64,000 nucleotides of DNA, from IMG/VR virus record IMGVR_UViG_3300011116_001007. One strand, 5' to 3'. The translations under genes and the position numbers were made by a program. The notes under the pieces are model-generated. The model was not told where the DNA came from, searched no databases, and saw nothing but the letters and a program-made list of their open reading frames with translations. Numbering within the stretch: the stretch's first letter is position 1; each line of letters starts with the position of its first letter. This DNA comes from a virus (lineage: Duplodnaviria; Caudoviricetes). Shown here piece by piece: positions 1 through 16,018 of this stretch.

Positions 1-561
1 CTCTCCGCTGCATGGTAATTTGGCACTCACACTAAATGTAACGTCTCTACAAAAGTCAATATCATCATGATATTTCCATGTATGCAGGTATTGTTTGAAT
101 TCAGTTGTTAGTTTTTGAGTGCCATTTGTCTCAAATGTAATTTCTTTAAGACCTTTCATCTTGGGATGTTTCAGCAAGTCTGGAAATTGTTTCTGCCATC
201 CCAGCAATGGTTCGCCTCCGGTGATAACCAAATGCTCATCGCGCCACTCGCCATGCGGAAGTATTTCTATAATACGTTCTACAATGGCATCTGTAGTCAG
301 CATTGGACTTAGGTCTTTGAAACGTGGATCCCAGCTGGCGTAACTGTCACAGCCTGTGCTTACTAATGGCAATTCATTGTATGTACGAAATTTTGTAGGA
401 TCAATGAATTCTGCTTCATCACTCAATTTTCCGCGTGGCATTCCAAAGCCTGCACATTTAAAGTTGCAGCCAAATGTACGTAAGAACACACTGGGCACAC
501 CCATGTAGCGGCCTTCGCCTTGTATGCTGTAGAATAGTTCTGCTATTTTAATTTTGCTCAT
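1..561 (-). CDS. queE: 7-carboxy-7-deazaguanine synthase QueE (radical SAM), 3' end runs off window
   Basis: Absent from the ORF track; manual translation from ATG 561 gives MSKIKIAELFYSIQGEGRYMGVPSVFLRTFGCNFKCAGF...VITGGEP...FETNGT...SVSAKLP, the QueE signature motifs. Confidence 0.93.
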   Translation of the reverse strand, partial: MSKIKIAELFYSIQGEGRYMGVPSVFLRTFGCNFKCAGFGMPRGKLSDEAEFIDPTKFRTYNELPLVSTGCDSYASWDPRFKDLSPMLTTDAIVERIIEILPHGEWRDEHLVITGGEPLLGWQKQFPDLLKHPKMKGLKEITFETNGTQKLTTEFKQYLHTWKYHDDIDFCRDVTFSVSAKLPCSGE

Positions 562-1265
562 AATCTTGTTACCTTGGTCATTCCTGAGTAGTTTGGATCT
601 TTATTTAGATTGATACTGACTTTGTGCATTTTAACACGAGTTTCAGATTTTGTCACCCATCCTGGTAACACTGCATCTAAGTAAGCCAAATGTTCTTCAG
701 GACTGGGGTGCGGATCAGGTCCGGGTTTGGGCCAGTTGTTTTTAAAAACTGTTTTATCGTATCCGGGTAAAATGCAATCTAGCACATTGCTGTAAAGTCG
801 CATGACATCACGATATTGACTCACATCATCGTCGTCATTGGGTCTTGCCATGAGTTCAACCATGCTTAAAAATTTCCAGTCAACTCCTGGACGTGATTCT
901 AACAATGTTTTAACAGCTTTGATATATGCTAAATCTCGTATTAAAAATCCTCGCTCATCAATATGTGAACGAATATATTCTGGATGATACACCGTTTTGG
1001 CAAAATATGCATTTCCCGGTGTATGCCAGCGATTGTCTACATATCTATCTTCACGATCTATACTGGTCCAACACACAACCACAGTGTCACCTGGACCAAA
1101 AGTATTGCGTTGATCACATTCCATTACTGAATTGAATATGTAGTGATTGCCGCCACCGGCCTGTCCCCAATTTTGTGTGTGATCAAACTCAGGCTCTAAA
1201 CAATCCACCCAAGTAGGCCAACGATAGTTGGTAAAACTACAACCAAATGCAAATAATCGGCTCAT
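558..1265 (-). CDS. SGNH/GDSL-like hypothetical protein
   Basis: FAFGCSFT block I and NWGQAGGGN block II; start at 1265 overlaps the upstream stop (ATGA). Confidence 0.55.
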   Translation of the reverse strand: MSRLFAFGCSFTNYRWPTWVDCLEPEFDHTQNWGQAGGGNHYIFNSVMECDQRNTFGPGDTVVVCWTSIDREDRYVDNRWHTPGNAYFAKTVYHPEYIRSHIDERGFLIRDLAYIKAVKTLLESRPGVDWKFLSMVELMARPNDDDDVSQYRDVMRLYSNVLDCILPGYDKTVFKNNWPKPGPDPHPSPEEHLAYLDAVLPGWVTKSETRVKMHKVSINLNKDPNYSGMTKVTRL

Positions 1266-2044
1266 GTTTTCCGAGCTTTGACCAGAAGGTGCCACCCAAG
1301 ATATTCTTTGATGGCATCTCGCATGTCAGCCGGCATGGCCTCAAACCAAGGTTCCAATTCATATCTACCTTGTTTGTAAGCCGGCACATCGTACATGAAA
1401 CAATGTGCCTGGCGCAAACGCTCAATATGAAAACGGTCGCCCAACAATGCATACACTTCTTCATTGGTGTAGGCCTTGGCATACGGGCAACCATTTTGTG
1501 CTTCAAATTGATCGAGACCTTTACGAATCATGCTGTACTTCCAGCTGTTTTTGGCGTATACCAAAAATCTAAATTCGCCGTGAGGCACCAACACGTCATA
1601 TGCATTTTGTATCATATCATCAATCCGTGGAAAGTGATGCATGACTCCGCAACTGTAAACCAAATCAAACTGGCCCAGGCCTTGGTATACCGCAGCATCA
1701 CTGGCATCGCCGCACACAAAGTTTCCATCCAGCCCTTCAACTTTGAATCGTTCTTGAGCTAATTTTACCGTGCGCGGGCTAATGTCAATAGCAGTATAAT
1801 CTGCACCGTATCGGGCAAATTCAGCAGCATCTGTTCCTATGCCACAGCCAATCTCTAACACACGTTTGCCTTGCCAAAGATGAAAGCTGGCAAATTCTCT
1901 TATGTGTGACTCCACTCGATATCTGCGTTCAGATACCTGTTGATAAAATTCCAATGTTCCTACTTCGCTGGTGCCATGTAAAATATTACAAGGTTGATTG
2001 TCCCAGTAGCGTATGATACGCTGTTCAAGTGTTTGGTCGTTCAT
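1262..2044 (-). CDS. Class I SAM-dependent methyltransferase
   Basis: VLEIGCGIGTD motif I, AIDIS, FDLVYSCGVMHH. Confidence 0.88.
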   Translation of the reverse strand: MNDQTLEQRIIRYWDNQPCNILHGTSEVGTLEFYQQVSERRYRVESHIREFASFHLWQGKRVLEIGCGIGTDAAEFARYGADYTAIDISPRTVKLAQERFKVEGLDGNFVCGDASDAAVYQGLGQFDLVYSCGVMHHFPRIDDMIQNAYDVLVPHGEFRFLVYAKNSWKYSMIRKGLDQFEAQNGCPYAKAYTNEEVYALLGDRFHIERLRQAHCFMYDVPAYKQGRYELEPWFEAMPADMRDAIKEYLGWHLLVKARKT

Positions 2045-2047
2045 TGA

Positions 2048-2893
2048 TTATCCTTCCATGATAGATCGTTTGATCTCCATGCTCCATTGTGATTGTTGAT
2101 GATTTACGTCATTGATCTTGAGTTTTTCCCAGGGGTCTTGTGTGCCTCTAAGTACGTTTTTAAAAAACTCAGTGCTCATTCCTATACTTTCCATGTATGC
2201 AGCAATTTTCCTACAATCGCTATATCGTAGTTCTATCACATCCGCGTATAAAAAATCTCTAGGGTCTTTGGGATTGCCTTCCAGCATGGGTCTGTTGTTG
2301 AAAGTAGCGTCTTGATTTTTTCCAGTGAGATCGTAACGTTCATGTGCCACATCAACAGGTATGCGTTCAAACACATCTAGTATGTAGGCCTGTTGACTCA
2401 GCCATGCATCAGAAATTTGATGCGGGCAAAGATATCCCAACAATTCCAGCCACTTGCGTGGCACAATGGGAAAAATACTGTAAGGATGTAAATTGTGTGT
2501 GCAGAATGCCAACAGTTTGAATTTACCTTCATGTTTCATAATTTCACTATCCCATGCAGGCGTCTGCATCACAGCATCGTCATTCCAAATGATATACCAA
2601 CGAGATTTGACCATGCGTGCCATTGCATTCACATATTCGTTCAGTCGAATATACCCCATGGGTTCAAATTTCATTGCGGTGTAGTTGGCTTTGATAGAAT
2701 CCAACCAGGGTTTCAAACTGGTATAAAAATAGTCTGTGCCCACAGCATCGTCCTGATCAAAACCCAGCATTAAGTATATTGACTTTGGGTCAGCTGCATT
2801 GTCGTACAGTGATTGTACACTTCGTCTCAGTGCAGTAGTACGCCCTCGTGTGGGCAACAGCACACTGATATCATACTTGAATTCAGTATCCAT
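2048..2893 (-). CDS. GT-A fold (GT2-like) glycosyltransferase, paralog 1
   Basis: ISVLLPTRGR start, IWNDDA DxD-like motif; start moved to ATG 2893 behind a GAGAG SD. Confidence 0.7.
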   Translation of the reverse strand: MDTEFKYDISVLLPTRGRTTALRRSVQSLYDNAADPKSIYLMLGFDQDDAVGTDYFYTSLKPWLDSIKANYTAMKFEPMGYIRLNEYVNAMARMVKSRWYIIWNDDAVMQTPAWDSEIMKHEGKFKLLAFCTHNLHPYSIFPIVPRKWLELLGYLCPHQISDAWLSQQAYILDVFERIPVDVAHERYDLTGKNQDATFNNRPMLEGNPKDPRDFLYADVIELRYSDCRKIAAYMESIGMSTEFFKNVLRGTQDPWEKLKINDVNHQQSQWSMEIKRSIMEG

Positions 2894-2920
2894 AAATTCT
2901 CTCACAATTATTTTATACAG

Positions 2921-4921
2921 TTAATACGTTTTTTTAATAGAAAAAGTACCTTGTGCTTTGGCAGCACCAGCACCGCGATGTGTACCTTTGAGATTTTCAA
3001 CTCCTACCAAATCCACTGTGGCTTTGCCAAAATTTCTGCGTCTTGCAAAATAAAACAACTCCAAAAATCGATTGCGGCTCATGGTTTTGTCTTCTGGAAA
3101 GTCCAAGCGATATGTTGTGGCAGTCTTCTGTAGAGCTTGGTTGAAACTCAAATAATCCCAAATATTATAGTCCAATTCAAGATTCATTGGATATTGATTT
3201 CTGTCGTTGTATTTGATGTAGTAACCTCTTTGCAGCTTCATCAAACTGGCCAACAAATCTTTGGGTAAGTCGTAACGTTGTAAAAATATTTCCAAGAAAT
3301 CATACAGTTCATCCACACGATCTTCTTGATGCATGTTCATACTGGTTCTATGAATGATATTCCAACCGTGTATCTCCACACCAATCTTGGGATGGTTAAT
3401 TCGACCAGTGGTCATCCAGTTGGAGAAATATTGCCTTGCCTCAGCTTCTTCCTTTTTTAACCAATCGTTGGTCAGAAAGTACGCAAATAAATCTTCATAG
3501 TAGTCGTTGTAACTTAGGCCTTTGTACTTGTTGATGAATCTAGCAACCAGAGTAGCAAATCCATTGATATGGAATGTGGTCTGGAACCACGAAAAGATCT
3601 GTGCATCCAACATCACTGGGGTAGGCATATCTTTGGTGCCTGTTATGACATCAATGCTTTCTTCAATGTGTTCCACACTGTAACTGCCGGCAAAGTAATC
3701 AGTAACAGGTTGACTGGTGATCTTGAACAGTTTCTTTTGCAACAAGTTCATTTCGGCGTTTTCCAACAACTGTGCCTGGAACACAGTGATACCAGTGTGC
3801 TGATTCAAATCATACAATGCATAGAAGTTTTTCTTCCATGATTCCAGTGACTCTCCGGGCAAACCAAGTATGAGTTCTGTGTAGGCAGGAATGTTGCGCT
3901 GGTCGCACAGCTCAAACACTTCTTCTAACTTGTTCATCTCCATGTTTTTTCGACGAATGTTTTCCAGCACATCCAAATCTAAACTTTGTACACTCAGTGT
4001 CAGGCCTTGGTTGAAGCCACGTGCGTCCAACAATTTCTTCACAATGTCTATGACTTCTTTCTTTTGATTTTTAGCCCAGGCCACACTGAATGTTCTCGGA
4101 GATCCGTACTTTTCTTGCATCTCAATGATCTTGTCTGCAATCATGCCATCACGTTCGGGGAACATACCAAAGTTGGCATCTGTAATTGAGATCCAGTCAA
4201 AGTTGTGTTTGGCCATCCATTCCAGTTCCTCAAACACACGTTCTAGTTCGAACTTCTTGACCTTGTTATAGGTCAGACTGCCCCAGTCACAAAATGTGCA
4301 AGCAAATGGGCATCCACGATTGGTTTCCAAAGTACCTTGCCATGTCACGTCAGGATGTTCGGCTATCATTTGATCAAAGATGCCTGCCAAGTACGGACTT
4401 GGCACTTCTTCTAATGATTCAATGCGTTTGGCATCTTGTGTCTTTACTGCTCGACCATCTCTGTTGATCAACACACCGGATACATTTTCCCAATCTTTGG
4501 TTTCAAAATGCTGTAGCACATTTTTGAAAGTTATTTCTCCTTCGTAGCAGATCACGAGATCTATAAAAGGTTCTTTCACAAACAAGTCAGGATCGGTAAT
4601 TGCAACTTCGGGGCCACCAAACACAGTCAACACAGCAGGATTTATTTCTTTGATTCGTTTGGCCAGTGCATAATTGTACCGATGATTCCATACGTAGGTG
4701 CTGAAAGTCACAATTTGATTTTGTGCTAGACGCTGTGCCAATGGTTCTATGGCATCTCTGCGCCAGATCCAATCAGTGGCTTCAAATCGTTCGCGGATCT
4801 CTGGGTCAGCTAGACTGTAACTCCATACTACACCAGCTGAGTAGGGCAGGTAATACGCATTGAACTCTTTGGGACCTTGTTGGAAATTGGGTTGGACCCA
4901 GGCAATTTTATGTTTCATCAT
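2921..4921 (-). CDS. Cobalamin-binding (class B) radical SAM protein
   Basis: N-terminal B12-binding-like domain (FSTYVWN...VFGGPE), RGCPFACTFC CxxxCxxC motif, ELILGLPGES. Confidence 0.88.
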   Translation of the reverse strand: MMKHKIAWVQPNFQQGPKEFNAYYLPYSAGVVWSYSLADPEIRERFEATDWIWRRDAIEPLAQRLAQNQIVTFSTYVWNHRYNYALAKRIKEINPAVLTVFGGPEVAITDPDLFVKEPFIDLVICYEGEITFKNVLQHFETKDWENVSGVLINRDGRAVKTQDAKRIESLEEVPSPYLAGIFDQMIAEHPDVTWQGTLETNRGCPFACTFCDWGSLTYNKVKKFELERVFEELEWMAKHNFDWISITDANFGMFPERDGMIADKIIEMQEKYGSPRTFSVAWAKNQKKEVIDIVKKLLDARGFNQGLTLSVQSLDLDVLENIRRKNMEMNKLEEVFELCDQRNIPAYTELILGLPGESLESWKKNFYALYDLNQHTGITVFQAQLLENAEMNLLQKKLFKITSQPVTDYFAGSYSVEHIEESIDVITGTKDMPTPVMLDAQIFSWFQTTFHINGFATLVARFINKYKGLSYNDYYEDLFAYFLTNDWLKKEEAEARQYFSNWMTTGRINHPKIGVEIHGWNIIHRTSMNMHQEDRVDELYDFLEIFLQRYDLPKDLLASLMKLQRGYYIKYNDRNQYPMNLELDYNIWDYLSFNQALQKTATTYRLDFPEDKTMSRNRFLELFYFARRRNFGKATVDLVGVENLKGTHRGAGAAKAQGTFSIKKTY

Positions 4922-5778
4922 GTACTTATTGATTCTGCAGTCGCCGGTTTGCCAAAGTGTGGATTGTTAAATTGTTTCATTTGATTGTTAGGGTCGTTTT
5001 CTAGCAGTCGCTGCCACGGCTCTTGAGTACCTTTAAACACATTTTCGAAATATTCAGTACTCTGCCCATGCTCTTGCATGTACATGGCCAATTTGGCACA
5101 GTCACCTTGACGTATTTGAAGATTTGGTAAACTATGGAAATCATTTGGATCCAGTGGTTTGCCTTCTAAAATATGTCGGTCCAAGAAAGTGGCATCCCCG
5201 TTGTTGCCAGTAAGATCAAATCGATCGTGTAACACATCAACTGGAATTCTGTGATAGATATCCAACAGGTATGCTTGTTGACTCACCCACCCATCTTGTG
5301 TGCTGTGCGGAGAGATATAACCCAACAAATCAAACCAAGCACGAGGTATAGTGGGAAAGATGCTGTAAGGATGCATGTTATGAGTACAGAAGCCCAACAA
5401 TTTCAAATGCGGATCTGTGTAGCTCATGATCACACTGTCCCATCCTTTGGTTTGCATCACAGCATCATCATTCCAGATCATCAACCATTCGCTGTCAGAC
5501 AGCTTGGCCAATGCATTGTTGTATTTGTGCAGATTCACATAGCCTAACCGATCAAACCGCATGGCCACGTAGGTGACTGATTGAGAATCTAACCAAGGCT
5601 GCAATGTTTCTTTAAAAAAACTTGTGCCTATTTCATCGTCCTTGTCAAATGCAAACATCAATTGCAATTTTTTAGGATCATCTGCCAGTTCTACTAGACT
5701 GCGTATGCTGCGGTCTAGACTGGCAGTGCGGCCACGAGTGGCCAATAGCATGGCTATGTTATAACGATGTTCAGTCAT
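4918..5778 (-). CDS. GT-A fold (GT2-like) glycosyltransferase, paralog 2
   Basis: LLATRGR, IWNDDAVMQT, HPYSIFP blocks shared with 2048-2893. Confidence 0.7.
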   Translation of the reverse strand: MTEHRYNIAMLLATRGRTASLDRSIRSLVELADDPKKLQLMFAFDKDDEIGTSFFKETLQPWLDSQSVTYVAMRFDRLGYVNLHKYNNALAKLSDSEWLMIWNDDAVMQTKGWDSVIMSYTDPHLKLLGFCTHNMHPYSIFPTIPRAWFDLLGYISPHSTQDGWVSQQAYLLDIYHRIPVDVLHDRFDLTGNNGDATFLDRHILEGKPLDPNDFHSLPNLQIRQGDCAKLAMYMQEHGQSTEYFENVFKGTQEPWQRLLENDPNNQMKQFNNPHFGKPATAESIST

Positions 5779-6253
5779 TGAATTCATGGTCCTCTCTGTG
5801 TCCTTGACGTCCTGCCATGTTTGAATCTGTTTCACGAACTTCTACTCTGGTACACCACACACGTCGGGCTTCTTCGCTGCCGCAGTTGGGCAAGAAGATA
5901 GTGTTAATGTATTCATACAAAAAGTCAGCAATGCCTTCACAACCAGTGCGTTCTACTTCAGTAATCTTGGCCAGTTTCAAGCGACCCAGTTCCAACAGGT
6001 GCTCACGCATGGGATCATCTTGTGCCACTAACAAAGTATGGTCAAACCATTCTTCTAGTTTTTCTTTGAGCGGTTTCAGTCCACCAAAGTCAGTGACCCA
6101 GTTACGTGCGTCCAGGGTGTCTGCTTCAAATTCGAAGTGAAAGCTCATTGCGTAACCATGTATGAGATTGCAATGACTATCCGCACGCCATTGACGATAG
6201 GCCACAGGGCCAATTTGCCTGTAAGTTTTTGTTGAAAAATATTTCTTTGCCAT
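5771..6253 (-). CDS. queD: 6-carboxy-5,6,7,8-tetrahydropterin synthase QueD
   Basis: CNLIHGY (CxxxHGH-like), DFGGLK, FDHTLL, EVRET T-fold motifs; deazaguanine gene context. Confidence 0.9.
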   Translation of the reverse strand: MAKKYFSTKTYRQIGPVAYRQWRADSHCNLIHGYAMSFHFEFEADTLDARNWVTDFGGLKPLKEKLEEWFDHTLLVAQDDPMREHLLELGRLKLAKITEVERTGCEGIADFLYEYINTIFLPNCGSEEARRVWCTRVEVRETDSNMAGRQGHREDHEFND

Positions 6254-6330
6254 GATTTTCTCCTATGTTAGATTATAGCATAGGCGGCGGAGTTTGTATA
6301 GCGGGACGATGCCGATAGGCCGCTGTATGG
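6254..6330 (-). promoter_or_regulatory. Structured 5' leader of queD (riboswitch candidate)
   Basis: GC-rich stem AGCGG/CCGCU and SD-sequestering stem CCUAUG/CAUAGG; ATAAATA late-promoter motif just upstream (6332-6338). Confidence 0.5.
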
Positions 6331-6334
6331 ATAT

Positions 6335-6727
6335 TTATGCTGGCTGTTTATAGCCATCTGTTTTGTAGTTGGCCTGCCCAGGTATGACCCCACGCACACC
6401 ACCTATTGGATCAGTACAATCACCGTGCCGCCGAGGGATCAAATGTATGTGTGGATACATCACAGTCTGACCAGCAGCGGTGCCAGAATTAAAACCAATA
6501 TTGTATCCATCATATTCTCCCTGTCTCACCATTCTTTCGCCATATCGTAATGCACTTTCAAATGCATCATTGATCACTGTGAGAGTATTGTAGTTTGGTA
6601 CGAACAGCAAATGTCCCGGTGCGACTGGATAACGATCTTGAAACACGGTGACGTGAAAATCACTGAGGTCTTTAAGATGTTGATCCCACGGTGCTATGCC
6701 TGTTTGTTGTGCTTCTGCTAAATCCAT
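6335..6727 (-). CDS. HIT family nucleotide hydrolase
   Basis: YPVAPGHLLFVP and GQTVMYPHIHLIPR histidine-triad motif. Confidence 0.9.
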   Translation of the reverse strand: MDLAEAQQTGIAPWDQHLKDLSDFHVTVFQDRYPVAPGHLLFVPNYNTLTVINDAFESALRYGERMVRQGEYDGYNIGFNSGTAAGQTVMYPHIHLIPRRHGDCTDPIGGVRGVIPGQANYKTDGYKQPA

Positions 6728-8007
6728 TATAAATCTTTCGTATAAAAAGTGTATTGACCCAGGATGAGATTTTCGTACATTAGCACTTTGTAACTATTGT
6801 TACGGGTTTTGTACAATGTCAAATATTGCATTGATAAATCAGTTGATGTTTTACTAAATGATACAGTATCTTGCTTCCATAATATTGCTGCTGGCGCAGC
6901 CTTACCATCGCCAACGATTAGAGATATTTTTGAACCAGCATCAACCACACGAGAATACATTGCAAAAGCAAAATCATTTGTTTGTGAAGGAAAGTATGTG
7001 TTGGTTTGATCAACAAAGTTAAAATTGCCCTGATTGACCAACACCGTAAATTTACCAGTTGGAGTTGTGGATCTAAAATTGCCATTGTCAAGCAATACCA
7101 CATCCTGGTCACCATCTTTATCTATGTCAACAATCACTACACTAACTATATCGTGAGTGAGATTCATATTGTCTCGTTCTTCACTGCCGGGTAATCCACG
7201 AGTGGTAATATAATTCATGTTTGAATCAAACACTCTCACATAAGCACTGTAATTCCCTTCGGTGGCAACATCGGTTGTGATAATACCAATGTTTCCGGTA
7301 GTTGAATCTTTGACAATGCTGCATGCACCGGCGCTGCTGATGGGTGTGTTGGTAAGCGAGTGATTTACCGTGAATGACCTTGACCCGTTGTTTACCAAAA
7401 TGGTATTGGGGCTGGTTCCATTTGCGCCCATCACAATATCTTTGCGGCCAGTGCCTCGCAAATCTCCTGCACATGCTGCATGTGCCCATACAGATTCTGT
7501 AAAGTCCTGTCGAGTCCATGTTGATCCATTGTTCCAAAACATCACACTGGTGGCCGACCGGCTGGGCACATCCTGAAACCCACCAACAAAAATATCCGGT
7601 CGGCCATCATTATCAAAATCCTCAATGAGAATTCGTTGTGCGCCAGCAATCATATTATTTGATCCCAGCAGTGCATCCGTGCGATCTAATAACGTGCCAT
7701 TTTCTTGTTGTATGAGAATTTTTACAGGCACGTTAGCATTACGAACACCAGACCAACCTGCAGGCATCACCGCCCATCCAGTGACCACAACATCCTCTAA
7801 TCCATCTCCGTTCAAATCAGCCACTGCAACATTGAATGAATGGCTCACACTGTTTTCGTTTTGATAAGCCATCACTTTGTTAGCAGTATTGATCACAGCA
7901 GTTTGGCTAGGCACTGGACTAGGAATTGAGTTATTGCTTGCTGTTCCGTCACCGCCGCCACCACACGCGGATAACAGTATAGTTAACAAAATAAAAATCT
8001 GTTTCAT
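6727..8007 (-). CDS. Lipoprotein with FG-GAP/VCBS repeats (beta-propeller)
   Basis: Signal peptide with lipobox LSAC-GGGG; repeats ADLNGDGLEDVVV, DFDNDGRPDIFV, DIDKDGDQDVVL. Confidence 0.8.
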   Translation of the reverse strand: MKQIFILLTILLSACGGGGDGTASNNSIPSPVPSQTAVINTANKVMAYQNENSVSHSFNVAVADLNGDGLEDVVVTGWAVMPAGWSGVRNANVPVKILIQQENGTLLDRTDALLGSNNMIAGAQRILIEDFDNDGRPDIFVGGFQDVPSRSATSVMFWNNGSTWTRQDFTESVWAHAACAGDLRGTGRKDIVMGANGTSPNTILVNNGSRSFTVNHSLTNTPISSAGACSIVKDSTTGNIGIITTDVATEGNYSAYVRVFDSNMNYITTRGLPGSEERDNMNLTHDIVSVVIVDIDKDGDQDVVLLDNGNFRSTTPTGKFTVLVNQGNFNFVDQTNTYFPSQTNDFAFAMYSRVVDAGSKISLIVGDGKAAPAAILWKQDTVSFSKTSTDLSMQYLTLYKTRNNSYKVLMYENLILGQYTFYTKDL

Positions 8008-8039: not shown

Positions 8040-8068
8040 ATTATAACTGAAACATAATTTTGAGTCAA
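8040..8068 (-). promoter_or_regulatory. sigma70 promoter for lipoprotein gene
   Basis: TTGACT-17 bp-TATAAT. Confidence 0.75.
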
Positions 8069-8097: not shown

Positions 8098-8886
8098 TTA
8101 TCTTGGTGCAAATTCTTGTTGTAGTTTGATATTGTCAAAGAACTCTTTCTTTGTGCTTTGATCAGTCTGGAATGCACCTTTGAGCACAGTGGTCTGTGTG
8201 AGACTTGAATGTGCCATGATACCACGATTCTCACAGCAGCCATGAATGGCTTGTACATACACGGCCACATCTTCTGCGTCAGTTGCCTTCATTATTTCTC
8301 TGGCAATGTCGTTGCAGAGTTCTTCCTGCAAAGTACCGCGCCTAGCGCACCACTGAGCAATACGAGTATACTTAGACAACCCAATAAGTTTTTGTGCAGC
8401 GATAATTCCAATGTAGGCAACACCACTAACAGGCTGATGATGGTGACTGCACATACTACGTAACTCGCTACGCACCACCAACATGCCTTCATATCGGTCC
8501 TGCGAATCGTTTGGAAATGCTGTTGCGTCTGGTGCTGGTTCATATCGTCCTGCCATTATCTCGTTGTAATACATCTTGGCCAAACGTCGAGCAGTGCCCT
8601 TACTGTTTGGATCATTTTCACGATCAATCAGCAGTGCGTCCAGCACTTTTTCAAATGCTTCTGCGGCTTCATTGATCAAGTGTTCCTTAGCTGATTCACT
8701 TACGTAGTCTGAGATGTTATCGCCGGCCCAGAATCTCTTGCCATCTGTTTTCATTCGATCGCGCAATGCGGCACTGAGATATTTGCCAGTGGTACCTGGT
8801 TCTTTTTTTACATATAGTTTTTGTTCCATAGGAACGAATTCTTGGTCTTGAGGAGTCAGTAGTGGATCAGGTACAAAGTCGGTCAT
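8098..8886 (-). CDS. folE: GTP cyclohydrolase I
   Basis: SMCSHHHQP, IGLSKYTRI, LQEELC, HGCCENRG motifs. Confidence 0.95.
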   Translation of the reverse strand: MTDFVPDPLLTPQDQEFVPMEQKLYVKKEPGTTGKYLSAALRDRMKTDGKRFWAGDNISDYVSESAKEHLINEAAEAFEKVLDALLIDRENDPNSKGTARRLAKMYYNEIMAGRYEPAPDATAFPNDSQDRYEGMLVVRSELRSMCSHHHQPVSGVAYIGIIAAQKLIGLSKYTRIAQWCARRGTLQEELCNDIAREIMKATDAEDVAVYVQAIHGCCENRGIMAHSSLTQTTVLKGAFQTDQSTKKEFFDNIKLQQEFAPR

Positions 8887-8887: not shown

Positions 8888-9478
8888 TTATAGTTCGATG
8901 GTTATGGTTCTTAAATCTGGATACGGCACAAACACAGGCTCTTGAGATTGATATTGTTCCAACAATTCCAATCCACGTACTGCATCTTCAATTGAAGGTT
9001 TGTAATGATATCCTATCTGGAAAGTTTTTTGTGACTGCCAGGGCACAGTATTTAGATCGCGACCATCATAACGTTGTTTTATCATGGTATTGTATGCTTT
9101 CTTGTTATCTAACAGTATAGCACCGCCATGGCCTATTTGTAAAGGTTTTGTATGTCCGAAACTCACGCATTGCATCTGTCCAGCTTGATACATGCCAGCT
9201 TCCAAGCGCCTGGCGCTGTCCCATACTCTGGTATACACAAAGTTATATTCGCCTGTCCAAGTTTGTTCAGGTTCGTCCATGTACACATAGTCAATGCCCA
9301 ATTTGTGCATGGTCATTGGTATGCTGAGATAGGTGTAAGGAGTCATTTTAAGACCGCGTACCCGATCATAACGCAAGCACAGTTCAATTGCATGGGTGCA
9401 GCAATCAGTCATGATTGCATAAGGTGCACCAGTGAATTTGGCCAGTGCTTTTTCAAACTCAAAAATTTTATCGAACAT
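8888..9478 (-). CDS. Short DegT/DnrJ/EryC1/StrS-type PLP aminotransferase
   Basis: FEKALAKFTGAPYAIMTDCCTHAI, WDSA, SFGHTK PLP-lysine, GGAIL; only 196 aa. Confidence 0.75.
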   Translation of the reverse strand: MFDKIFEFEKALAKFTGAPYAIMTDCCTHAIELCLRYDRVRGLKMTPYTYLSIPMTMHKLGIDYVYMDEPEQTWTGEYNFVYTRVWDSARRLEAGMYQAGQMQCVSFGHTKPLQIGHGGAILLDNKKAYNTMIKQRYDGRDLNTVPWQSQKTFQIGYHYKPSIEDAVRGLELLEQYQSQEPVFVPYPDLRTITIEL

Positions 9479-10412
9479 ACCAGTTCCAAGAATGTTGTAT
9501 CATATTATCCAATGTGTATTTTTGCCAATGACCGTACTGATCAAATTTATCTGAACTTGCTGTCAACACAGCTGGATCTCCGGCACGTTTAGGCCCTGAT
9601 CTAAAATTCAAAATTTGTTTTGTGATTCGTTGTGCAGCGTCAATAATTTCTAAATTACTCACACCTTGGTTGCTGCCAAGATTATACACACCAGCAGATA
9701 CCTTGGCATCCAATGCTGCAACATGTGCAGCAGCAATGTCTTCCACATGCACATAGTCTCGCACACAAGTACCATCATTGGTAGGATAGTCAATACCGTT
9801 GAGCACAAATTCTTGTCGATCTCTAATGCTTTCTAACACCCGCGAAATGATATGTGTACCACCAGGTTCACTGCCATGGCGTGCCTGGCTGTCGGCACCG
9901 CAGGCATTGAAATATCGAAATGCTACATAGTCTAGTTTATACGCCCGATGATAACTGGCCAGCACCTGTTCAATCATGCGCTTGCTTTCACCGTACGGAC
10001 TCAACGGTTCGCAAGGATCCGTTTCAGCACACGGAGTCATAGTGGGCTCACCATATACTGCTGCACTTGAACTGAAGATAAATCTGGTCTTGGGCAAAGC
10101 AGCAAGTACAAGATCCAACATGTGGATGGTCTTAATAACATTATTGTGATAGTAGTCAGATGGATATCTAATACTGGGGCCTACTAGGCTTGTGCCAGCA
10201 CAATGGATAATGGCATCAGGAACAAATTGTATCAATTTTTTACCAGCTGTGTCACTGTCAAAGTCGGCCAGCACAAACTGATTGAATACTTCTTTGAGAT
10301 GCGACGGGCACGGTCTGCGATCAATACCCAGGACCTCGTGCCCGGCATCTTTCAATGCCAGTGCAATTTGCCCACCGATGTAACCGGCCGAACCAGTGAC
10401 CACTACTTTCAT
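9468..10412 (-). CDS. galE: UDP-glucose 4-epimerase / NAD-dependent sugar epimerase
   Basis: TGSAGYIG, FSSSAAVYG, YGESK, FRYFNACGAD, RDYVHVED, RAGDP. Confidence 0.92.
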   Translation of the reverse strand: MKVVVTGSAGYIGGQIALALKDAGHEVLGIDRRPCPSHLKEVFNQFVLADFDSDTAGKKLIQFVPDAIIHCAGTSLVGPSIRYPSDYYHNNVIKTIHMLDLVLAALPKTRFIFSSSAAVYGEPTMTPCAETDPCEPLSPYGESKRMIEQVLASYHRAYKLDYVAFRYFNACGADSQARHGSEPGGTHIISRVLESIRDRQEFVLNGIDYPTNDGTCVRDYVHVEDIAAAHVAALDAKVSAGVYNLGSNQGVSNLEIIDAAQRITKQILNFRSGPKRAGDPAVLTASSDKFDQYGHWQKYTLDNMIQHSWNWYVR

Positions 10413-11611
10413 GATTCAATCTTTACCACTTGATATTTTTCGTGGGCCACATGATCACGATATCTGTTGCCAGCACGATTCCATTGTTCTCCTGTGCCCT
10501 GCAATATGTCCACCACACGATCCACTGTGCCGTTGTTCCAGTCACTGATCAATCCCATGTTGTGATGCGGATCACGCAAGAGATTTTGCAGTTTGTGATA
10601 GGCATCATCTATTGACCAAGGAACGTAAAGCCTGTTGGGATCGTTTGAGAAAGTTTCGGGGAAACTACGATAGGCAGGATAAAGCACATTACAGCCAAGA
10701 GTGTCAGCCTCGGAAACTGTGTTAGAGACCCAGTCTTGTAAAGCACAATTAAACAACACACGAGTGTTATTGAGGTGAGCGTAGTAATCATTTTTTGTAA
10801 TGTTGTCGTAAATTTTCAACTGTCCGGCTGCTTCCATCCTGCGAGCACGAGTCACATACTCTGGGTTGTTGCTGCGTAACTCACCACCGCTGTAGATCAC
10901 AAACTCACATGGTTCGCTTGTGAGTTCGCCATACATGTCAATCAGATCCATAAAAAAGCCCGGTTGCTTTTCTTGATCAAATCTTGCTGCAAAACCCACA
11001 CGTCTTGGGCGCGCCCCAAATGGTCGAACGTTGCCTGCGCCACCAATGCGTTCCAGCACTTCTTCTTTGCCAAACGCAAGACCGGAGATGTTGTAGATAG
11101 GAGCGGTCCATCCCGCAATACGCATGTGAGCAACCATTTCTTCGTTGGTAGCCAACACGCCTGTCACAAACTGGTTGACCATTTTTTCGTATGTGCTCAT
11201 CCAACCTGCCATGCCCCAAACATGTACAAAGTCGTCAGGATCAATGGCTTGTGCCAGGCAACGTACCCATACCTGTGGACGTAATTCTGCAGGCACCTGG
11301 TCCATGATATATGGCAAACTTTCAATACCTGGCTGGAACATGTCTTCAAAATAGATTACATCTTCGCTGGTGACTTCGCCTTGTTGCATGAGTCTCACCA
11401 GATTCATCATTTGACTCATACCAAAGTAACTGCGGCCGTGTGCATCCAGTACTTGACCAACCACAATCTTTTGGCTGTTGTCTAGGGTGAGTCCAGGCAC
11501 ATATACCACGTCAAGTCCTCGACGGTCAAACACACGCCGGTTCCACTCAGTGAGTTGTAATGTATACCGAGCCTCGTAGCTTTCCAAACCCATGTAAAAT
11601 AATTTTCTCAT
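10409..11611 (-). CDS. GT-B fold glycosyltransferase
   Basis: C-terminal GT-B features: RFDQEKQP, LFNCALQDWVSNTVSEADTLGCNVLYP. Confidence 0.7.
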   Translation of the reverse strand: MRKLFYMGLESYEARYTLQLTEWNRRVFDRRGLDVVYVPGLTLDNSQKIVVGQVLDAHGRSYFGMSQMMNLVRLMQQGEVTSEDVIYFEDMFQPGIESLPYIMDQVPAELRPQVWVRCLAQAIDPDDFVHVWGMAGWMSTYEKMVNQFVTGVLATNEEMVAHMRIAGWTAPIYNISGLAFGKEEVLERIGGAGNVRPFGARPRRVGFAARFDQEKQPGFFMDLIDMYGELTSEPCEFVIYSGGELRSNNPEYVTRARRMEAAGQLKIYDNITKNDYYAHLNNTRVLFNCALQDWVSNTVSEADTLGCNVLYPAYRSFPETFSNDPNRLYVPWSIDDAYHKLQNLLRDPHHNMGLISDWNNGTVDRVVDILQGTGEQWNRAGNRYRDHVAHEKYQVVKIES

Positions 11612-11633
11612 TGTAACAATCCTTTGTTGAAGT

Positions 11634-12506
11634 TTAACATTTTTCTAGTAAGTTGTAAAGAGTTTTAGAATCTGTTGGAAAGATATTTAACCTATCACAG
11701 CGTATCTCATACCCATGTGTTCGCAGTCGTTGTTGAACTATGGCCTCAGCTATGACATGGATGGATTGCCAAGAAAATTCTTGTTGATTGATTGTTGATT
11801 CAACAATCTGATCTAACAAGTTGAATTCATCCAGAATATATTGTTGGGCCAGTTGCCATTTTGTGGCAAAGGACCCAAGATTGCCATCTAATGTAAGACC
11901 GCAATGGTCAATCATTTTAATAAATGTTGACTCTGTATCATACAACAGGTCTGTGTTGACAATTTTCAGAAAGTCGCCGGATACCTGATTTTGTGATTGT
12001 ATCCATTCTTGCACCCATTCTGCATAAAACAAACTGAACCATTCTCGGAGTTCCCAAGGCTGCATTTCCTTCCAGCTTTTGTACGCCGGGTTCCACTGGA
12101 TTATGTTATGAGTGTTGCTGTCACAAAAAATTCCCAGGCCGCACTCTAATCCCACACAAATTTTATAGTATTGAAATAATATATTAAGTTCTGCGGATCT
12201 TAAATTGCTGGCATGAATCAAAATTGATCGACTTTGTTTGTCAATGTACAACTTGTAATAATCTAATATTTCAGGTAGGTGCAGAGTTTTAAAAGGATAT
12301 ATAGGAGTGGTTATCGAATCATGTTGTATTTTTTTTAAATTGTCCAACAAGTTTTGTTGGTAGATATGCAGTTCTTTAGAATAGCTGTGCATGCTCCCGT
12401 CGGCAAGAATGACTCCATTGATAGAATCATGCTCTTTGGTAAATGTTCTTAGTACATATTCTATTGTAGTTCCAAACATTCCGGGAACAAAAAACACATG
12501 AATCAT
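11634..12506 (-). CDS. Hypothetical protein (P-loop/sulfotransferase-like N-terminus)
   Basis: 292-codon ORF; VFFVPGMFGTTI N-terminal loop; AT-richer than neighbours by eye. Confidence 0.45.
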   Translation of the reverse strand: MIHVFFVPGMFGTTIEYVLRTFTKEHDSINGVILADGSMHSYSKELHIYQQNLLDNLKKIQHDSITTPIYPFKTLHLPEILDYYKLYIDKQSRSILIHASNLRSAELNILFQYYKICVGLECGLGIFCDSNTHNIIQWNPAYKSWKEMQPWELREWFSLFYAEWVQEWIQSQNQVSGDFLKIVNTDLLYDTESTFIKMIDHCGLTLDGNLGSFATKWQLAQQYILDEFNLLDQIVESTINQQEFSWQSIHVIAEAIVQQRLRTHGYEIRCDRLNIFPTDSKTLYNLLEKC

Positions 12507-12727
12507 GCACGATGCCCGGCCAATCTACGTGCATCTTCCCACCACATGTTCTTGGCATTCTTGCCTTGGGCATACTTGGTGAACTGTTGCCAAGCATAAC
12601 TTTTGAAGTTGTATAGATCCGCTTCGTTGTAGCGATATCCATAGTCTTTGCAAAACTCTTCGTATTGTTCAAGGTGGTTGAAGATCTCAGCAACGTGAGG
12701 GTTGGTACGGAATGCAATTTTTGCCAT
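12503..12727 (-). CDS. Small hypothetical protein
   Basis: 74 aa ORF with SD, stop overlaps next start. Confidence 0.6.
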   Translation of the reverse strand: MAKIAFRTNPHVAEIFNHLEQYEEFCKDYGYRYNEADLYNFKSYAWQQFTKYAQGKNAKNMWWEDARRLAGHRA

Positions 12728-12738
12728 GTTATTTCCTA

Positions 12739-13191
12739 TTAGATTTTAATTGATTGAGCAGGATAAGTGAGATTGTATTGTATTACAGCGCCGTTCTCAC
12801 CATCTTCGGATACGTTGATCCATACAGCACGGTCTGGATATCTTGCAGCGATTTGATCGTAAAGTTCATCGCTGATCATTTCACAACTCTTGTAATTGAG
12901 TTCAAGTGTGCCGCCAGCATAGAGATTTTCTAGCCAGCGTTTGAACTGAATGAATTCAATGTCACGATCGTTGTGGAATACTTGTATGGTCACTTCAAAG
13001 TGAAATATGTGTCTGTGTGGACTGGCCAAAAAGCTCACATCATACTCATCACCTGTGGCCAATGCAGGATCTGTGGCTGCTGCTGGATAACAATGAATGC
13101 CTTCTTTTTGGAACCGTACAAAAATTGTGCGTACAGCACGATCCTTGATACGTTGTCGTGTTTCTACAAGTGCATGATCGCGTTCGTTCAT
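12739..13191 (-). CDS. QueD-like T-fold protein, DpdL-like (putative CDG decarboxylase)
   Basis: FLASPHRHIFHF (LxxxHRHxF), DIEFI, SCEMI, VSEDGENGA; sits two genes from dpdA. Confidence 0.6.
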   Translation of the reverse strand: MNERDHALVETRQRIKDRAVRTIFVRFQKEGIHCYPAAATDPALATGDEYDVSFLASPHRHIFHFEVTIQVFHNDRDIEFIQFKRWLENLYAGGTLELNYKSCEMISDELYDQIAARYPDRAVWINVSEDGENGAVIQYNLTYPAQSIKI

Positions 13192-13694
13192 AATGTTTCG
13201 TCCTTGGTATATTTAGACCAGTCAGTGAAATGGTCTCGGTTTTGTAAATCATGTATGCTGTGACACCAAACACCTGGATTGGTTGCAGCAAAATCTCGGT
13301 CGTCTAGTTTGAGTGTGGCATTGTAGCCCAACAATTTGATATATGGTAGCTTGACTGATATCATTGGAATAAAGTTGTGATCTTCAGTCAGGCAGGATTC
13401 CAACAAGCCTTCTACGCATTTGACATCAATATCTAACGTACACAGATATCCTTTTTGTAAAAAGGGTAAAATCATATTTTCCCATTGTGTCCACTTCACA
13501 TAGTCGTTAGTGTCAATGTTTGGAAAACTCTGGTTGGCACCAAAGTAAATGTGCTCGCAACCTTGTATATAAGCAGCGATATCATCCTCTGATTGAACGC
13601 CTACCACAAACAATGTTTTTTTGCCCAATGCAGGTGTGTGTTCTACTTCTGTGCCGGTAAAGAATGCAGTATTCTCGTGACCTTCTCGGTTCAT
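13188..13694 (-). CDS. Hypothetical protein of dpd cluster (possible cysteine-less QueE-like barrel)
   Basis: 168 aa; FFTGTEVE..GKKTLFVVG, HIYFGAN, ISVKLP. Confidence 0.45.
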   Translation of the reverse strand: MNREGHENTAFFTGTEVEHTPALGKKTLFVVGVQSEDDIAAYIQGCEHIYFGANQSFPNIDTNDYVKWTQWENMILPFLQKGYLCTLDIDVKCVEGLLESCLTEDHNFIPMISVKLPYIKLLGYNATLKLDDRDFAATNPGVWCHSIHDLQNRDHFTDWSKYTKDETL

Positions 13695-13754
13695 ATCTGA
13701 TCCTGTTCAAGTTGTTGTAATGCTTGTAAGTTTAACTGATCTTGGTAGTCTGTG

Positions 13755-14462
13755 TCAACCTTGATTGTGTTGTATTTCTTGATGTTGGTTGTCTCTTTCA
13801 AAATCGTCAACTATTTTTCTAAAAATTTTAGCAGCTCTATTTCTTTTTTCTTCGAACTCAGGTCCTTGCAACACCGTTTTCTGCCATTCCTCATACAAAA
13901 TATGCAACGCAATTTCTATATCTTGAGTTACTGTTCTATCTATGAATGCGGCCAACTTAATAAATTCTGGTAAGAATTTTTGGTAACCGTTGATAATACT
14001 AGCAAGACTAATTTTATAAACTGATGGATCATTCTTCAAATCAAAACCGTTTTCGAAATTTTTGAAAGTTTGGAAAGAATGTTTGTACTCCCCATTCAAT
14101 ATGACCCAATCTAAATTATTTTCATGATCTATAAAAATGTTAACTGCGGTGTCATCTTTACCGGTAATATTTTTAATATTATTCGCTGGGGCAGGATGCT
14201 TGATCGAAACCCCATTGCCATTGGGGCCTATGTCCCAGTGTGGTTTCACAACATCGTACTCCTTGATCGCACCCTCAAAATCAATCCAGGTAATATACCT
14301 GGATTGATCTTTATAAGTCAATAGGTCCAGTTTTTCTTCCAACGTGTTTGGTATATTTTTTCCGTTAGACCACACATAAGTGTCGTCTAGTAAATTTATG
14401 CACCGGGAAAGAAAATTCCCCGCTGCCCCTGGTATAAAATGCAAAGCAATAAATCGTTTCAA
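13755..14462 (-). CDS. AT-rich accessory protein (P-loop/sulfotransferase-like N-terminus)
   Basis: 235 aa; IALHFIPGAAGNFL; visibly AT-rich; start overlaps dpdA stop. Confidence 0.5.
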   Translation of the reverse strand: MKRFIALHFIPGAAGNFLSRCINLLDDTYVWSNGKNIPNTLEEKLDLLTYKDQSRYITWIDFEGAIKEYDVVKPHWDIGPNGNGVSIKHPAPANNIKNITGKDDTAVNIFIDHENNLDWVILNGEYKHSFQTFKNFENGFDLKNDPSVYKISLASIINGYQKFLPEFIKLAAFIDRTVTQDIEIALHILYEEWQKTVLQGPEFEEKRNRAAKIFRKIVDDFERDNQHQEIQHNQG

Positions 14463-16018
14463 ACTGATTGCTCCAGTTGTTCCAATTTTGTTGTGCCGAG
14501 ATCGTCAGGGTCAGTGTCAACCTCTACCATGTCAAACAATGCATTGAATTGAGTTCTTGCATTCATGGCCTTTTTGCCTTTGAAGCCGCGTGTGCCCACC
14601 ACATCCATCCAGTAGTTGCTGTAGTGCTCGATGATGTCCATGCTGTCTTGCTTGGTCGGCGCAGCAAAGATAGCTTCCACAATGTCATGGAATCGAGCAT
14701 GATCACCCTTTTCATTCCACAGCATGCGCGGCCATTTGGTGCCAGAATCATATTCACGATTGGCACGTTGTACTGACTCCAAGTGTGTCCACACATTGTG
14801 ACCCATCAGCAGTGCATATGAGAAACTATCCCACGATGTCTTGCCTTCTTTGCCAATCTTGTTTAGATCACCAGGCTTGTAGATACAGATGTCCTTCATG
14901 GTCAGGTGGCGACTGATAGGGCTCTCATCAAAGTGATTGACCAATCCATCTGCCACCACAGCCTGTCCATACGGGCGTGTGTCTGTGCTGTATTTCTTGT
15001 CGTCAGCAATGGGACTCATCCTATAAGACCATTTGCTGTTGTGTGTGGTATCAATTTCATGATACACCTGCCCATTGGCAGTGGCCAAGAACGGACTGGC
15101 GCAATCAAAGCTGATGGTAAAAGCAGGATTCACATGCTTTCTTACTGCACGTTGGATGGCAGTCAACAGCACAGCCCATTCCAATTTGCTTGTGCCCAAG
15201 AAGTGCATCCAATCATGCACGCCTTCTTGCAAGAGATTGTCATAGCGCAAAGTGACTAGACGTCGGAGCACAAGATGTACATCGCACATGTTCTGCCCGC
15301 CCATACTCCACCCATCAAAGTGTGTGTCAGGATACACAGCAGGATCACAAAAGTGTTTCATCTCCTCATACCAAGCATCGGCACTGGTATGATTGTCGCC
15401 TTGCAACACATTCAAAATCTTGGTGCCACCATTGCGAACACCTTTGCGATGCCGCATGAAGTATTCGTTGTTGAACTTGGTTGCATCCACTGCTTCTTGC
15501 AGCGTGGTGATCTGGCAGGCCCGGCTGGCTTTTTTATCGTGTATGACCCAGGTTGGAATATCAAGTGTCATGCAATAATCAGAAACATTGTCTAGCCAAT
15601 TGAGAATTGCCTCACGTTTCTTTTGTGCTTTGGCACAGCCCGAGTTGGCTTTCCAGTCACCTTCCCACAGACCCTTGGCGATCTGGAATCCACCTGAGTC
15701 GCCCAGCATGAACGTGCCTGGCTCACGACTGCGAACCATGTCTTCTGACCAGTCTTGCTTGTTGAGATCCAGGTTAGCATGCCCACCTGAATACAGGCTC
15801 CACTTGTAGGGAAACAATGCTTTTTGACTGTTGAGCCAGTTCAGTTGTTCCATGTCTGGTATTCCTGCGGGCATACGTGCAGGATCCACATAAGGTCCAT
15901 TTACTGGATCTCGTTGCTTGCCCACAAAGGTGGCGTAAAAGCCGGATATGGCCGGCAAGAACACAGCATAGTCATTCTGTTTGGCAGTGAGATTGTCTTG
16001 GATTAGATCTTGAGTCAT
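14459..16018 (-). CDS. dpdA: DNA guanine transglycosylase (TGT-fold), DpdA/DpdA2-like
   Basis: GDSGGFQ, CMTLDIP, VLQG, WSMGG, HFLG, SFDCASP TGT motifs; folE/queD/queE context. Confidence 0.85.
   Translation of the reverse strand: MTQDLIQDNLTAKQNDYAVFLPAISGFYATFVGKQRDPVNGPYVDPARMPAGIPDMEQLNWLNSQKALFPYKWSLYSGGHANLDLNKQDWSEDMVRSREPGTFMLGDSGGFQIAKGLWEGDWKANSGCAKAQKKREAILNWLDNVSDYCMTLDIPTWVIHDKKASRACQITTLQEAVDATKFNNEYFMRHRKGVRNGGTKILNVLQGDNHTSADAWYEEMKHFCDPAVYPDTHFDGWSMGGQNMCDVHLVLRRLVTLRYDNLLQEGVHDWMHFLGTSKLEWAVLLTAIQRAVRKHVNPAFTISFDCASPFLATANGQVYHEIDTTHNSKWSYRMSPIADDKKYSTDTRPYGQAVVADGLVNHFDESPISRHLTMKDICIYKPGDLNKIGKEGKTSWDSFSYALLMGHNVWTHLESVQRANREYDSGTKWPRMLWNEKGDHARFHDIVEAIFAAPTKQDSMDIIEHYSNYWMDVVGTRGFKGKKAMNARTQFNALFDMVEVDTDPDDLGTTKLEQLEQSV

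Follow-up and report, generated by a model that had tools for sequence, protein, structure and literature searches.

Can a phage that builds a 7-deazaguanine into its DNA also attach a sugar to that base? The question is raised by positions 1-16018 of a 64,000-nucleotide stretch of virus DNA (Duplodnaviria; Caudoviricetes; IMG/VR record IMGVR_UViG_3300011116_001007), here called the window, in which genes for deazaguanine synthesis are interleaved with glycosyltransferase and sugar genes downstream of a DNA polymerase gene. To our knowledge, all DNA bases known to bear sugars are pyrimidines. The best explanation of the locus is, in our assessment, a replication-linked DNA hypermodification operon, to which we give an even chance; that its product may be a glycosylated 7-deazaguanine in phage DNA, with every step after 7-carboxy-7-deazaguanine (CDG) proposed from gene content, we rate as even at best and possibly slightly under. 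The system is of a known kind, namely phage 7-deazaguanine DNA modification in its 2'-deoxy-7-deazaguanine (dDG) branch, and what is new consists of a large DpdA-like subfamily, two partner genes, and the embedded glycosylation genes.

A co-oriented gene cluster next to the phage DNA polymerase

The interval holds nineteen co-oriented genes, all on the minus strand (as is every window feature described below), and most of their start and stop codons overlap by 1-11 nt. These overlapping reading frames indicate tight coupling and were counted in favor of a single operon. The run of co-oriented genes reaches from the family B DNA polymerase (18061-20838; phrog_262, 7.8e-196) down to position 1, and the order of polymerase, clamp-like gene, and DpdA-like gene is common to PA5oct, a Pseudomonas jumbo phage, and 78 loci. 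An earlier note on this DNA, made from the letters alone, had named deazaguanine, glycosyltransferase, sugar, and radical S-adenosylmethionine (SAM) genes here, and each was recovered in its place and on the minus strand.

The stretch was found in viral, riverine, and lake metagenomes; contigs that encode the 14459-16018 protein measure as much as 308 kb, and those with its close relatives as much as 348 kb, which together point to an uncultured freshwater jumbo phage. This phage is distantly related to PA5oct. A megablast comparison of the 16 kb with 50,697 phage records (INPHARED) returned no close DNA match.

Predicted route to 7-deazaguanine

Three genes of the interval would convert GTP to CDG, namely those for FolE (GTP cyclohydrolase I; 8098-8886; PF01227, 1.2e-40), a QueD-like 6-carboxytetrahydropterin synthase (5771-6253; PF01242, 4.7e-16; phrog_2389, 5e-43), and QueE (CDG synthase; 1-561; phrog_2076, 8.8e-36). 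The FolE-QueD-QueE route to CDG is an established pathway. QueE is cut by the left edge of the window, leaving its N-terminal 187 aa, and QueE equivalogs match it at 1e-14 to 1e-11. In an alignment with seven QueEs of other carrier phages, two cysteines of the radical-SAM triad are invariant (C32 and C36), followed by F39; a conserved GCDS some 35 residues further on may hold the third cysteine, suggesting an unusual cluster-binding spacing.

The QueD-like protein carries C-NLI-HGY (CxxxHGY) instead of the signature CxxxHGH, a feature kept in all 17 clade homologues, and HMMER alignment places HGH of the solved QueDs where the clade proteins show HGY. Its score against TIGR03367 (38 bits) lies under the cut-off of 89. 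Within the clade motif SHCxLxHGY a tyrosine replaces the zinc-ligand histidine, and the gene occurs in two sequence types, 41-46% versus 85-98% identical to the window copy.

A second T-fold gene, QueD-like (12739-13191), encodes a homologue of DpdL, the proposed CDG decarboxylase, with 37% identity to gp040/DpdL of Cellulophaga phage phiST (BLASTP, E = 4e-17). At residues 55-63 it reads L-ASP-HRH-I-F, which is the published LxxxHRHxF that replaces CxxxHGH (PMC10516641). The presence of FolE, QueD, QueE, and a candidate DpdA alongside it fits the published context of DpdL.

The earlier note had supposed that queC might lie left of the window. None was found in five related viral contigs, the largest of 317 kb and estimated to be 89% complete, in a search whose control was positive in 14 of 14 reference genomes, and judged from these relatives the gene is probably missing from the source genome. 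The lack of QueC in relatives, combined with the DpdL homologue, indicates the 7-deazaguanine (dDG) branch of the phiST type, and routes through preQ0 are not indicated by the gene set as read from sequence.

A large and divergent TGT-fold enzyme

The gene at 14459-16018 encodes a 519-aa protein, termed DpdA* herein, that by structure prediction and comparison is the candidate DNA deazaguanine transglycosylase. The earlier note had called it a dpdA with the fold of tRNA-guanine transglycosylase (TGT); the fold was borne out by structure only, while sequence models gave the identity no backing. DpdA* has no match in Pfam (E up to 10), PHROGs, NCBIfam, or PADLOC, whose models of defense proteins presumably cover bacterial Dpd; sequence and profile searches of the PDB were likewise empty. 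PF01702 was matched by one of 48 homologues (E = 0.088).

The AlphaFold2 model, built on 48 diverse homologues, has a predicted local distance difference test (pLDDT) score of 89.8 and a predicted template modeling score of 0.91. The top 50 Foldseek matches in the PDB were all TGT (E of about 1e-7). VIA-align ranked archaeosine TGT (ArcTGT; Z = 17.3), TGT (16.1), QTRT2 (16.1), the solved DNA preQ0 insertase DpdA 7ui4 (14.9), and Cap10 (13.4) above generic TIM barrels (11.4 or less), and phage DpdA-type proteins were among the structural matches in BFVD. Two motifs are conserved across the 48 homologues (26-45% identity), GDSGGFQ (D107, S108, and G110 invariant) and ISFDC (D305 invariant); D107 and D305 presumably correspond to Asp102 and Asp280 of the Zymomonas mobilis TGT. 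The TGT zinc site (CxCxxC...H) is without counterpart, and the homologue alignment contains no invariant or near-invariant cysteine.

Fold, catalytic aspartate motifs, and gene context lead us to infer that DpdA* exchanges guanine in DNA. In profile comparisons (hhalign), similarity to the 259-aa DpdA3 of phiST was marginal (probability 75%, E = 2.6e-5, 83 columns), and the large TGT-like proteins of phages BUDD and BUCT-ZZ01 were matched with probabilities of 96% and 93%. By these models and comparisons, DpdA* appears as a new subfamily of large DpdA-like enzymes. A word-index search with 90% clustering returned more than 7,600 close relatives, and grouping at 50% identity divides the public-metagenome members of the family into 952 clusters, carried by contigs that reach about 350 kb.

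Glycosyltransferases and sugar genes

The core sugar-transfer gene (10409-11611) encodes a GT4-like glycosyltransferase (GT) of the GT-B type, assigned from weak Pfam matches and fold. Its AlphaFold2 model (pLDDT 76.8) shows the two-Rossmann GT-B fold, and the leading Foldseek matches were BshA (3.9e-11), PimA, MshA, and glycogen synthase, with E values from 4e-11 to 1e-8 and template modeling scores of 0.56-0.68. Against Pfam models of the Glycos_transf_1 clan the window protein reached only 0.006-0.05. Glyco_trans_1_2 was matched by 22 of 22 clade members, all under its cut-off, and the homologues of BUDD (45.7 bits) and BCSR5 (42) passed the PF00534 cut-off of 26.4 bits. D293-x7-E301, invariant in 22 sequences, is presumably a variant of the EX7E catalytic motif of the C-terminal domain.

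A kinship of this GT-B with the queuosine mannosyltransferase QTMAN was also considered, as QTMAN clusters were among its neighbors in a protein language-model atlas (Atlas; score 0.97). Pfam and fold ranking did not support it: PF12038 (QTMAN_N) had no match in the 22 clade proteins (E up to 5) or in eight homologues from other lineages (E up to 1), and no QTMAN was among the top 30 Swiss-Prot folds.

Two GT-A (GT2-like) paralogues (2048-2905, phrog_14945, 2e-11; 4918-5835, phrog_14945, 1.6e-8) are 53% identical, share an invariant N108-D109-D110, and fall with GT2 clusters in Atlas (0.97-0.98). GalE, a UDP-glucose 4-epimerase (9468-10412), matches the equivalog TIGR01179 (8.9e-87) at 291 bits, above the cut-off of 262.3. 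The adjoining gene (8888-9478) encodes a DegT/pyridoxal-phosphate aminotransferase-like protein of half length (196 aa; PF01041, 8e-14, N-terminal part only), a size kept at 192-205 aa in 29 distinct relatives. The suggestion of an amino sugar in the earlier note leans on this half-length DegT and lost weight accordingly, as did its suggestion of a methylated glycan, which leans on two accessory genes, one for the B12 radical SAM enzyme, present in 7 of 12 loci, and one for a methyltransferase, present in 1 of 2.

Linkage of GT-B to deazaguanine clusters across cultured phage lineages

Searched with a GT-B profile, six other cultured lineages proved to carry the gene, one per genome and always inside a deazaguanine cluster, in shuffled gene orders; throughout the 50,697-phage collection every detectable GT-B homologue lay within such a cluster. 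PA5oct (1.7e-12) has DpdA*, GT-B (EST35_0317), and DpdL directly after its polymerase, with QueE further along. Acidovorax phage ACP17 (1e-14) has FolE, a homologue of the 168-aa protein described below, DpdA*, GT-B, DpdL, and QueE. The Xanthomonas phage BUDD and phage X1 (1e-23) have FolE, separated from GT-B, a TGT-like gene, DpdL, and QueE, and in BCSR5 (3e-18) GT-B and a TGT-like gene are then followed by QueE. In Synechococcus phage BUCT-ZZ01 the order is QueE, then at a distance QueD, FolE, a second glycosyltransferase, a TGT-like gene, DpdL, and GT-B (65% identity), and in Sinorhizobium phage Phosso (1.2e-8) it is DpdL, GT-B, and FolE, with QueE further along. A TGT-fold enzyme stands close to GT-B in all carriers except Phosso.

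The picture differs in phiST and Vibrio phage D479, where DpdL is accompanied by a small DpdA3 and GT-B is lacking, so that GT-B appears to track the large TGT-like enzyme and not DpdL alone. The DpdL phages RHph_I1_18, Ahp1, and Bakedbeans, with neither GT-B nor transglycosylase detected, are uninformative for this contrast. Being drawn from independent cultured lineages, this linkage is, at the level of gene content, stronger evidence than the clade survey reported below.

For PA5oct, resistance of the DNA to five restriction enzymes has been reported, from which the authors infer a modified G of no stated structure (PMC12191111). The phage is targeted by nucleases that sense hypermodified G, and of its genes the authors name only QueE and a 6-pyruvoyltetrahydropterin synthase, PTPS (gp230) (PMC12191111). 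Iyer et al. 2021 (PMC7824862) also count it among the phages with a system for making deazaguanine and incorporating it.

Further genes were observed in these clusters. BUCT-ZZ01 encodes a phosphoribosyltransferase between QueE and QueD (L083 7093-7554; PF00156, 3e-13), hinting that the free base may become a nucleotide there. In BUDD a PAPS-reductase/PP-loop protein lies between FolE and GT-B (L084 10380-10874; PF01507, 8e-13) and could activate the CDG carboxylate in the manner of QueC. In Bakedbeans gp176 (L091 7215-8366) the DpdL homologue forms the C-terminal third of a 383-aa protein, a possible fusion.

Conservation within the clade

Every window gene was mapped across 80 IMG/VR loci with DpdA-like proteins of 76-98% identity, counting for each gene only those loci with anchors flanking it on both sides (assessable loci). 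The 168-aa gene was present in 68 of 68, DpdL and the 74-aa gene each in 60 of 60, GT-B in 47 of 47, GalE in 41 of 41, FolE in 23 of 23, QueD in 12 of 12, and a GT-A following QueD in 9 of 9. Half-DegT (32/35) and HIT (15/17) were nearly as constant. Lower counts were obtained for the B12 radical SAM gene (7/12), the FG-GAP gene (4/19), the 290-aa gene (5/59), the 235-aa gene (1/75), and the SAM methyltransferase (1/2, with one related locus in all). DpdA, DpdL, the 168-aa and 74-aa genes, GT-B, GalE, FolE, QueD, and GT-A thus form the core, and the B12 radical SAM, methyltransferase, and FG-GAP genes are variable. The earlier note had called for such a synteny survey, and GT-B, GalE, half-DegT, HIT, and GT-A do accompany dpdA in every assessable relative or almost every one.

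Unrelated genes have been inserted between core genes in many loci, and, depending on the junction, 7 to 43 loci show gaps of more than 300 nt. These frequent insertions mark the region as plastic, and the core set has nonetheless been retained. As a single clade was surveyed, shared ancestry contributes to this pattern.

Two of the core genes appear to be new partner genes of the module. One (13188-13694) encodes a 168-aa protein with many invariant His, Asp, Glu, and Cys residues, whose homologue in ACP17 (5e-21) lies directly upstream of the DpdA-like gene; no PDB match was found for it. The other (12503-12727) encodes 74 aa and has no family match. Two identities for the 168-aa protein were set aside: a cysteine-less QueE, an idea put forward earlier (hhalign probability 0.1%), and a small nucleotide-sugar transferase, for which the Atlas hint (0.93, 120 shared features) was too weak to be used.

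Proposed product and competing explanations

In the pathway that we propose, CDG made by FolE, the QueD-like protein, and QueE would, with no QueC at hand, be decarboxylated by the DpdL homologue to 7-deazaguanine (DG), as proposed for phiST, and DpdA* would then swap guanine in phage DNA for the deazaguanine. The GT-B would add a sugar, most likely after insertion of the base, from UDP-galactose-type donors supplied through the phage GalE, and one or two GT-A enzymes may lengthen it. Half-DegT, HIT, and in some strains the B12 radical SAM methylase and the SAM methyltransferase may tailor the sugar. Candidate acceptors would be the exocyclic N2 (as in huimycin), the C7 substituent, the carboxylate, or a pyrrole carbon; alternatively, the acceptor could be a group installed by one of the conserved partner proteins.

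The fullest version of this account is a galactose-type sugar on 7-deazaguanine, which would be the first glycosylated purine analogue known in any DNA, shared by at least six other cultured lineages through a DpdA*/DpdL/GT-B core. In this clade it would be extended by GT-A to an oligosaccharide that varies among strains (amino, C- or O-methyl groups), with a large zinc-less DpdA and two partner proteins taking part. We regard this version as possible, with the balance tipped somewhat against it. A literature search turned up no account of a glycosylated 7-deazaguanine in DNA, of "DpdA5", or of MIJ3/PA5oct mass spectrometry.

Several points weigh against a glycosylated deazaguanine in DNA. The weakest point is the acceptor, as a hydroxyl such as known DNA glycosyltransferases act on is missing from DG and CDG, and an oxygenase was not recognized in the window. 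What speaks for the sugar steps (GT-B, GT-A, and tailoring) is gene linkage, and for GalE, half-DegT, HIT, and GT-A this linkage to the pathway is confined to one clade, where ancestry alone could suffice. The GT-B fold match is generic GT4, with T4 alpha-glucosyltransferase (1ya6) merely at rank 49, and the queuosine mannosyltransferase was not recovered among the fold matches. DpdA*, lacking both the zinc site and a match to a DpdA sequence model, has a substrate (DNA, tRNA, or protein) that is inferred. The role of DpdL as CDG decarboxylase is a proposal, in phiST as well (PMC10516641). The stretch was assembled from ordinary metagenome libraries and is therefore sequenceable, an observation that is neutral on modification.

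Chief among the other explanations is that the DNA contains plain dDG (or dCDG, from CDG), as in phiST, and that the sugar genes, merely sharing the operon, serve a host surface polysaccharide or lipopolysaccharide (superinfection exclusion) or a virion protein. Glycosyltransferase and nucleotide-sugar clusters of jumbo phages have been read as modifying host-surface polysaccharide (Iyer et al. 2021, PMC7824862), and GalE, DegT, GT-A, and methyltransferases are typical of polysaccharide loci. The missing acceptor hydroxyl and the restriction of GalE, half-DegT, HIT, and GT-A to dpdA of one clade fit this explanation as well. We nevertheless consider it unlikely: GT-B stands beside DpdL and a TGT-like gene in six further, rearranged lineages and nowhere else in the phage collection, the sugar genes sit between the que genes (DpdL ... 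FolE ... QueD ... QueE) and have been retained despite frequent insertions, and general family scans recognized no flippase, polymerase, lipid-carrier transferase, or signal-bearing protein in the interval.

Still less probable, in our view, is a glycosyltransferase that acts on a free 7-deazapurine, giving an N-glycoside like huimycin or dapiramicin, or on a pterin, giving a product like biopterin glucoside, with the product being a metabolite or a base used afterwards. The huimycin and dapiramicin clusters do join preQ0 genes, GT4-type glycosyltransferases, methyltransferases, and 6-deoxy-sugar genes, a pterin glucosyltransferase (5ze7) appears at rank 34 of the GT-B fold matches, a phosphoribosyltransferase is present in the BUCT-ZZ01 cluster, and the size of DpdA* (519 versus 259 aa for DpdA3) could allow a wider base pocket. 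But the folds matched by GT-B are generic GT4, every carrier except Phosso has a TGT-fold enzyme near GT-B, and it is the DNA of PA5oct itself that behaves as G-modified (PMC12191111). That the target of the TGT-fold protein is tRNA, or else a protein (the case of Cap10 in type IV CBASS), with the cluster serving translation or anti-defense, we judge to be the least probable of these explanations and very unlikely. ArcTGT, TGT, and QTRT2 scored slightly above DpdA in the fold search, with Cap10 fifth, no DpdA sequence model matched, and the zinc site is missing; against this, the gene keeps its place immediately behind those for the DNA polymerase and the clamp-like protein, and phage DpdA subfamilies are very divergent (PMC10516641). 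PA5oct, a carrier of a DpdA* orthologue, has restriction-resistant DNA (PMC12191111) and is listed with a deazaguanine incorporation system (Iyer et al. 2021, PMC7824862). The earlier note had itself proposed a glycan on a deazaguanine in DNA; the linkage behind that proposal stood up, whereas the chemistry, including acceptor atom and sugar identity, gained no support.

Comparison with known modification systems

One of the closest known systems is that of phiST, whose DNA carries plain dDG and which encodes FolE, QueD, QueE, DpdL, and DpdA3 (Cui, Hutinet et al., NAR 2023, PMC10516641). Both phages have FolE, QueD, and QueE without QueC, a DpdL with LxxxHRHxF, and a divergent TGT-like gene near DpdL, beside the replicative polymerase. 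They differ in the transglycosylase, which is 519 aa here and 259 aa in phiST, in the two extra conserved genes and the QueD motif CxxxHGY of the window, and in the GT-B, GalE, DegT, HIT, GT-A, and B12 radical SAM genes, all present in the window and absent from phiST. PA5oct (Arenbergviridae) shares the polymerase, the clamp-like gene, DpdA* (32% identity), a GT-B-family gene, DpdL, and QueE, but its region lacks GalE, half-DegT, HIT, GT-A, and the B12 radical SAM gene and has only a short gene resembling short-chain dehydrogenases/reductases (SDR); neither FolE nor QueD turned up in the 31.6 kb of PA5oct examined.

As in phages with T4-type glycosylated 5-hydroxymethylpyrimidines (and 5-hydroxycytosine), nucleotide-sugar glycosyltransferases are encoded with base-modification genes, the GT-B fold is that of T4 AGT (1ya6), and sugar genes diversify between related phages. 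Unlike T4, the base would be a purine analogue, a hydroxymethylase was not detected in relatives, and specific similarity to T4 enzymes is lacking. The analogy with T4 glucosyl-hydroxymethylcytosine drawn in the earlier note therefore extends to the association of sugar transfer with base modification and fails at the acceptor, as 7-deazaguanine has no obvious hydroxyl and a search of five related contigs, the longest of 317 kb, yielded no ThyA-type hydroxymethylase.

Animal tRNA queuosine (mannosyl-Q made by QTMAN/GTDC1 and galactosyl-Q made by QTGAL) offers a precedent for a sugar on a 7-deazaguanine derivative in nucleic acid; there, however, the acceptor is the cyclopentenediol, which is beyond the reach of this pathway. 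In huimycin and dapiramicin biosynthesis, GT4-type enzymes N-glycosylate 7-deazapurines, so that N2-glycosylation is feasible (bioRxiv 10.64898/2026.04.15.718813). Those clusters, like the present one, combine deazapurine genes with a GT4-type glycosyltransferase, extra glycosyltransferases, methyltransferases, and sugar-tailoring SDR enzymes, but they serve actinomycete secondary metabolism on preQ0 (QueC present) without TGT/DpdA, whereas the genes here belong to a phage replication module.

Accessory and neighboring genes

The cobalamin-dependent (class B) radical SAM enzyme (2921-4921), an accessory gene, combines a B12-binding domain (PF02310, 1.7e-8, residues 60-135) with a Radical_SAM domain (PF04055, 9e-11, residues 200-363) and resembles the KedN5 family (3e-80 over residues 14-392), under the family cut-off. 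It also matches the PADLOC candidate-defense family PDC-M51A (6.8e-30), and its C-terminal approximately 270 aa are without assignment. Other named genes of the interval are an accessory class I SAM methyltransferase (1262-2044; Methyltransf_25, 3e-20) and a HIT-family protein (6335-6727; PF01230, 1.4e-10).

The list in the earlier note had omitted the two partner genes, an FG-GAP repeat protein (6727-8007; PF13517, 1e-19) that is a variable insert, and three genes with no family match. The latter encode 245 aa (558-1295), with no match in the 80 related loci, 290 aa (11634-12506), and 235 aa (13755-14462), the last two being variable inserts. The 290-aa and 235-aa proteins start with similar glycine-rich segments (VPGMFGTT and IPGAAGNF) that recall loops binding nucleotides or PAPS; despite these alike N-termini, no relationship of the two as paralogues was detectable.

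Upstream of DpdA* lie the clamp-like gene (16359-17081; phrog_12062) and a gene without assigned function (17123-18064). The former is homologous to the annotated sliding clamp of Phosso and to the PA5oct "structural protein" EST35_0314, always follows the polymerase gene and precedes the DpdA-like gene, and probably encodes a sliding clamp. A near-consensus sigma-70-like promoter (8040-8068; TTGACT, 17-nt spacer, TATAAT; 11/12) lies in the 90 nt that separate FolE from the FG-GAP gene and was the best match in 18 kb. An Rfam scan of positions 1-21000 recognized no riboswitch and no other known RNA.

Implications for phage DNA modification

Nine DNA 7-deazaguanines are known, eight of them listed in PMC10516641, and they carry only small groups at C7. 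A glycosylated deazaguanine, if the proposal is true, would add a new class to the natural DNA bases. Sites that contain G would then be protected both against restriction enzymes and against nucleases that recognize plain deazaguanine. A direct test is possible, since PA5oct, ACP17, BUCT-ZZ01, BUDD, X1, BCSR5, and Phosso are cultured and the modified G of PA5oct is unexplained. The DpdA* family is not rare in public metagenomes, and such a modification would bear on how phages evade restriction enzymes and modification-sensing nucleases, on the sequencing and cloning of such phage DNA, and on the search for DNA-glycosylation enzymes, of which these phages may be a new source.

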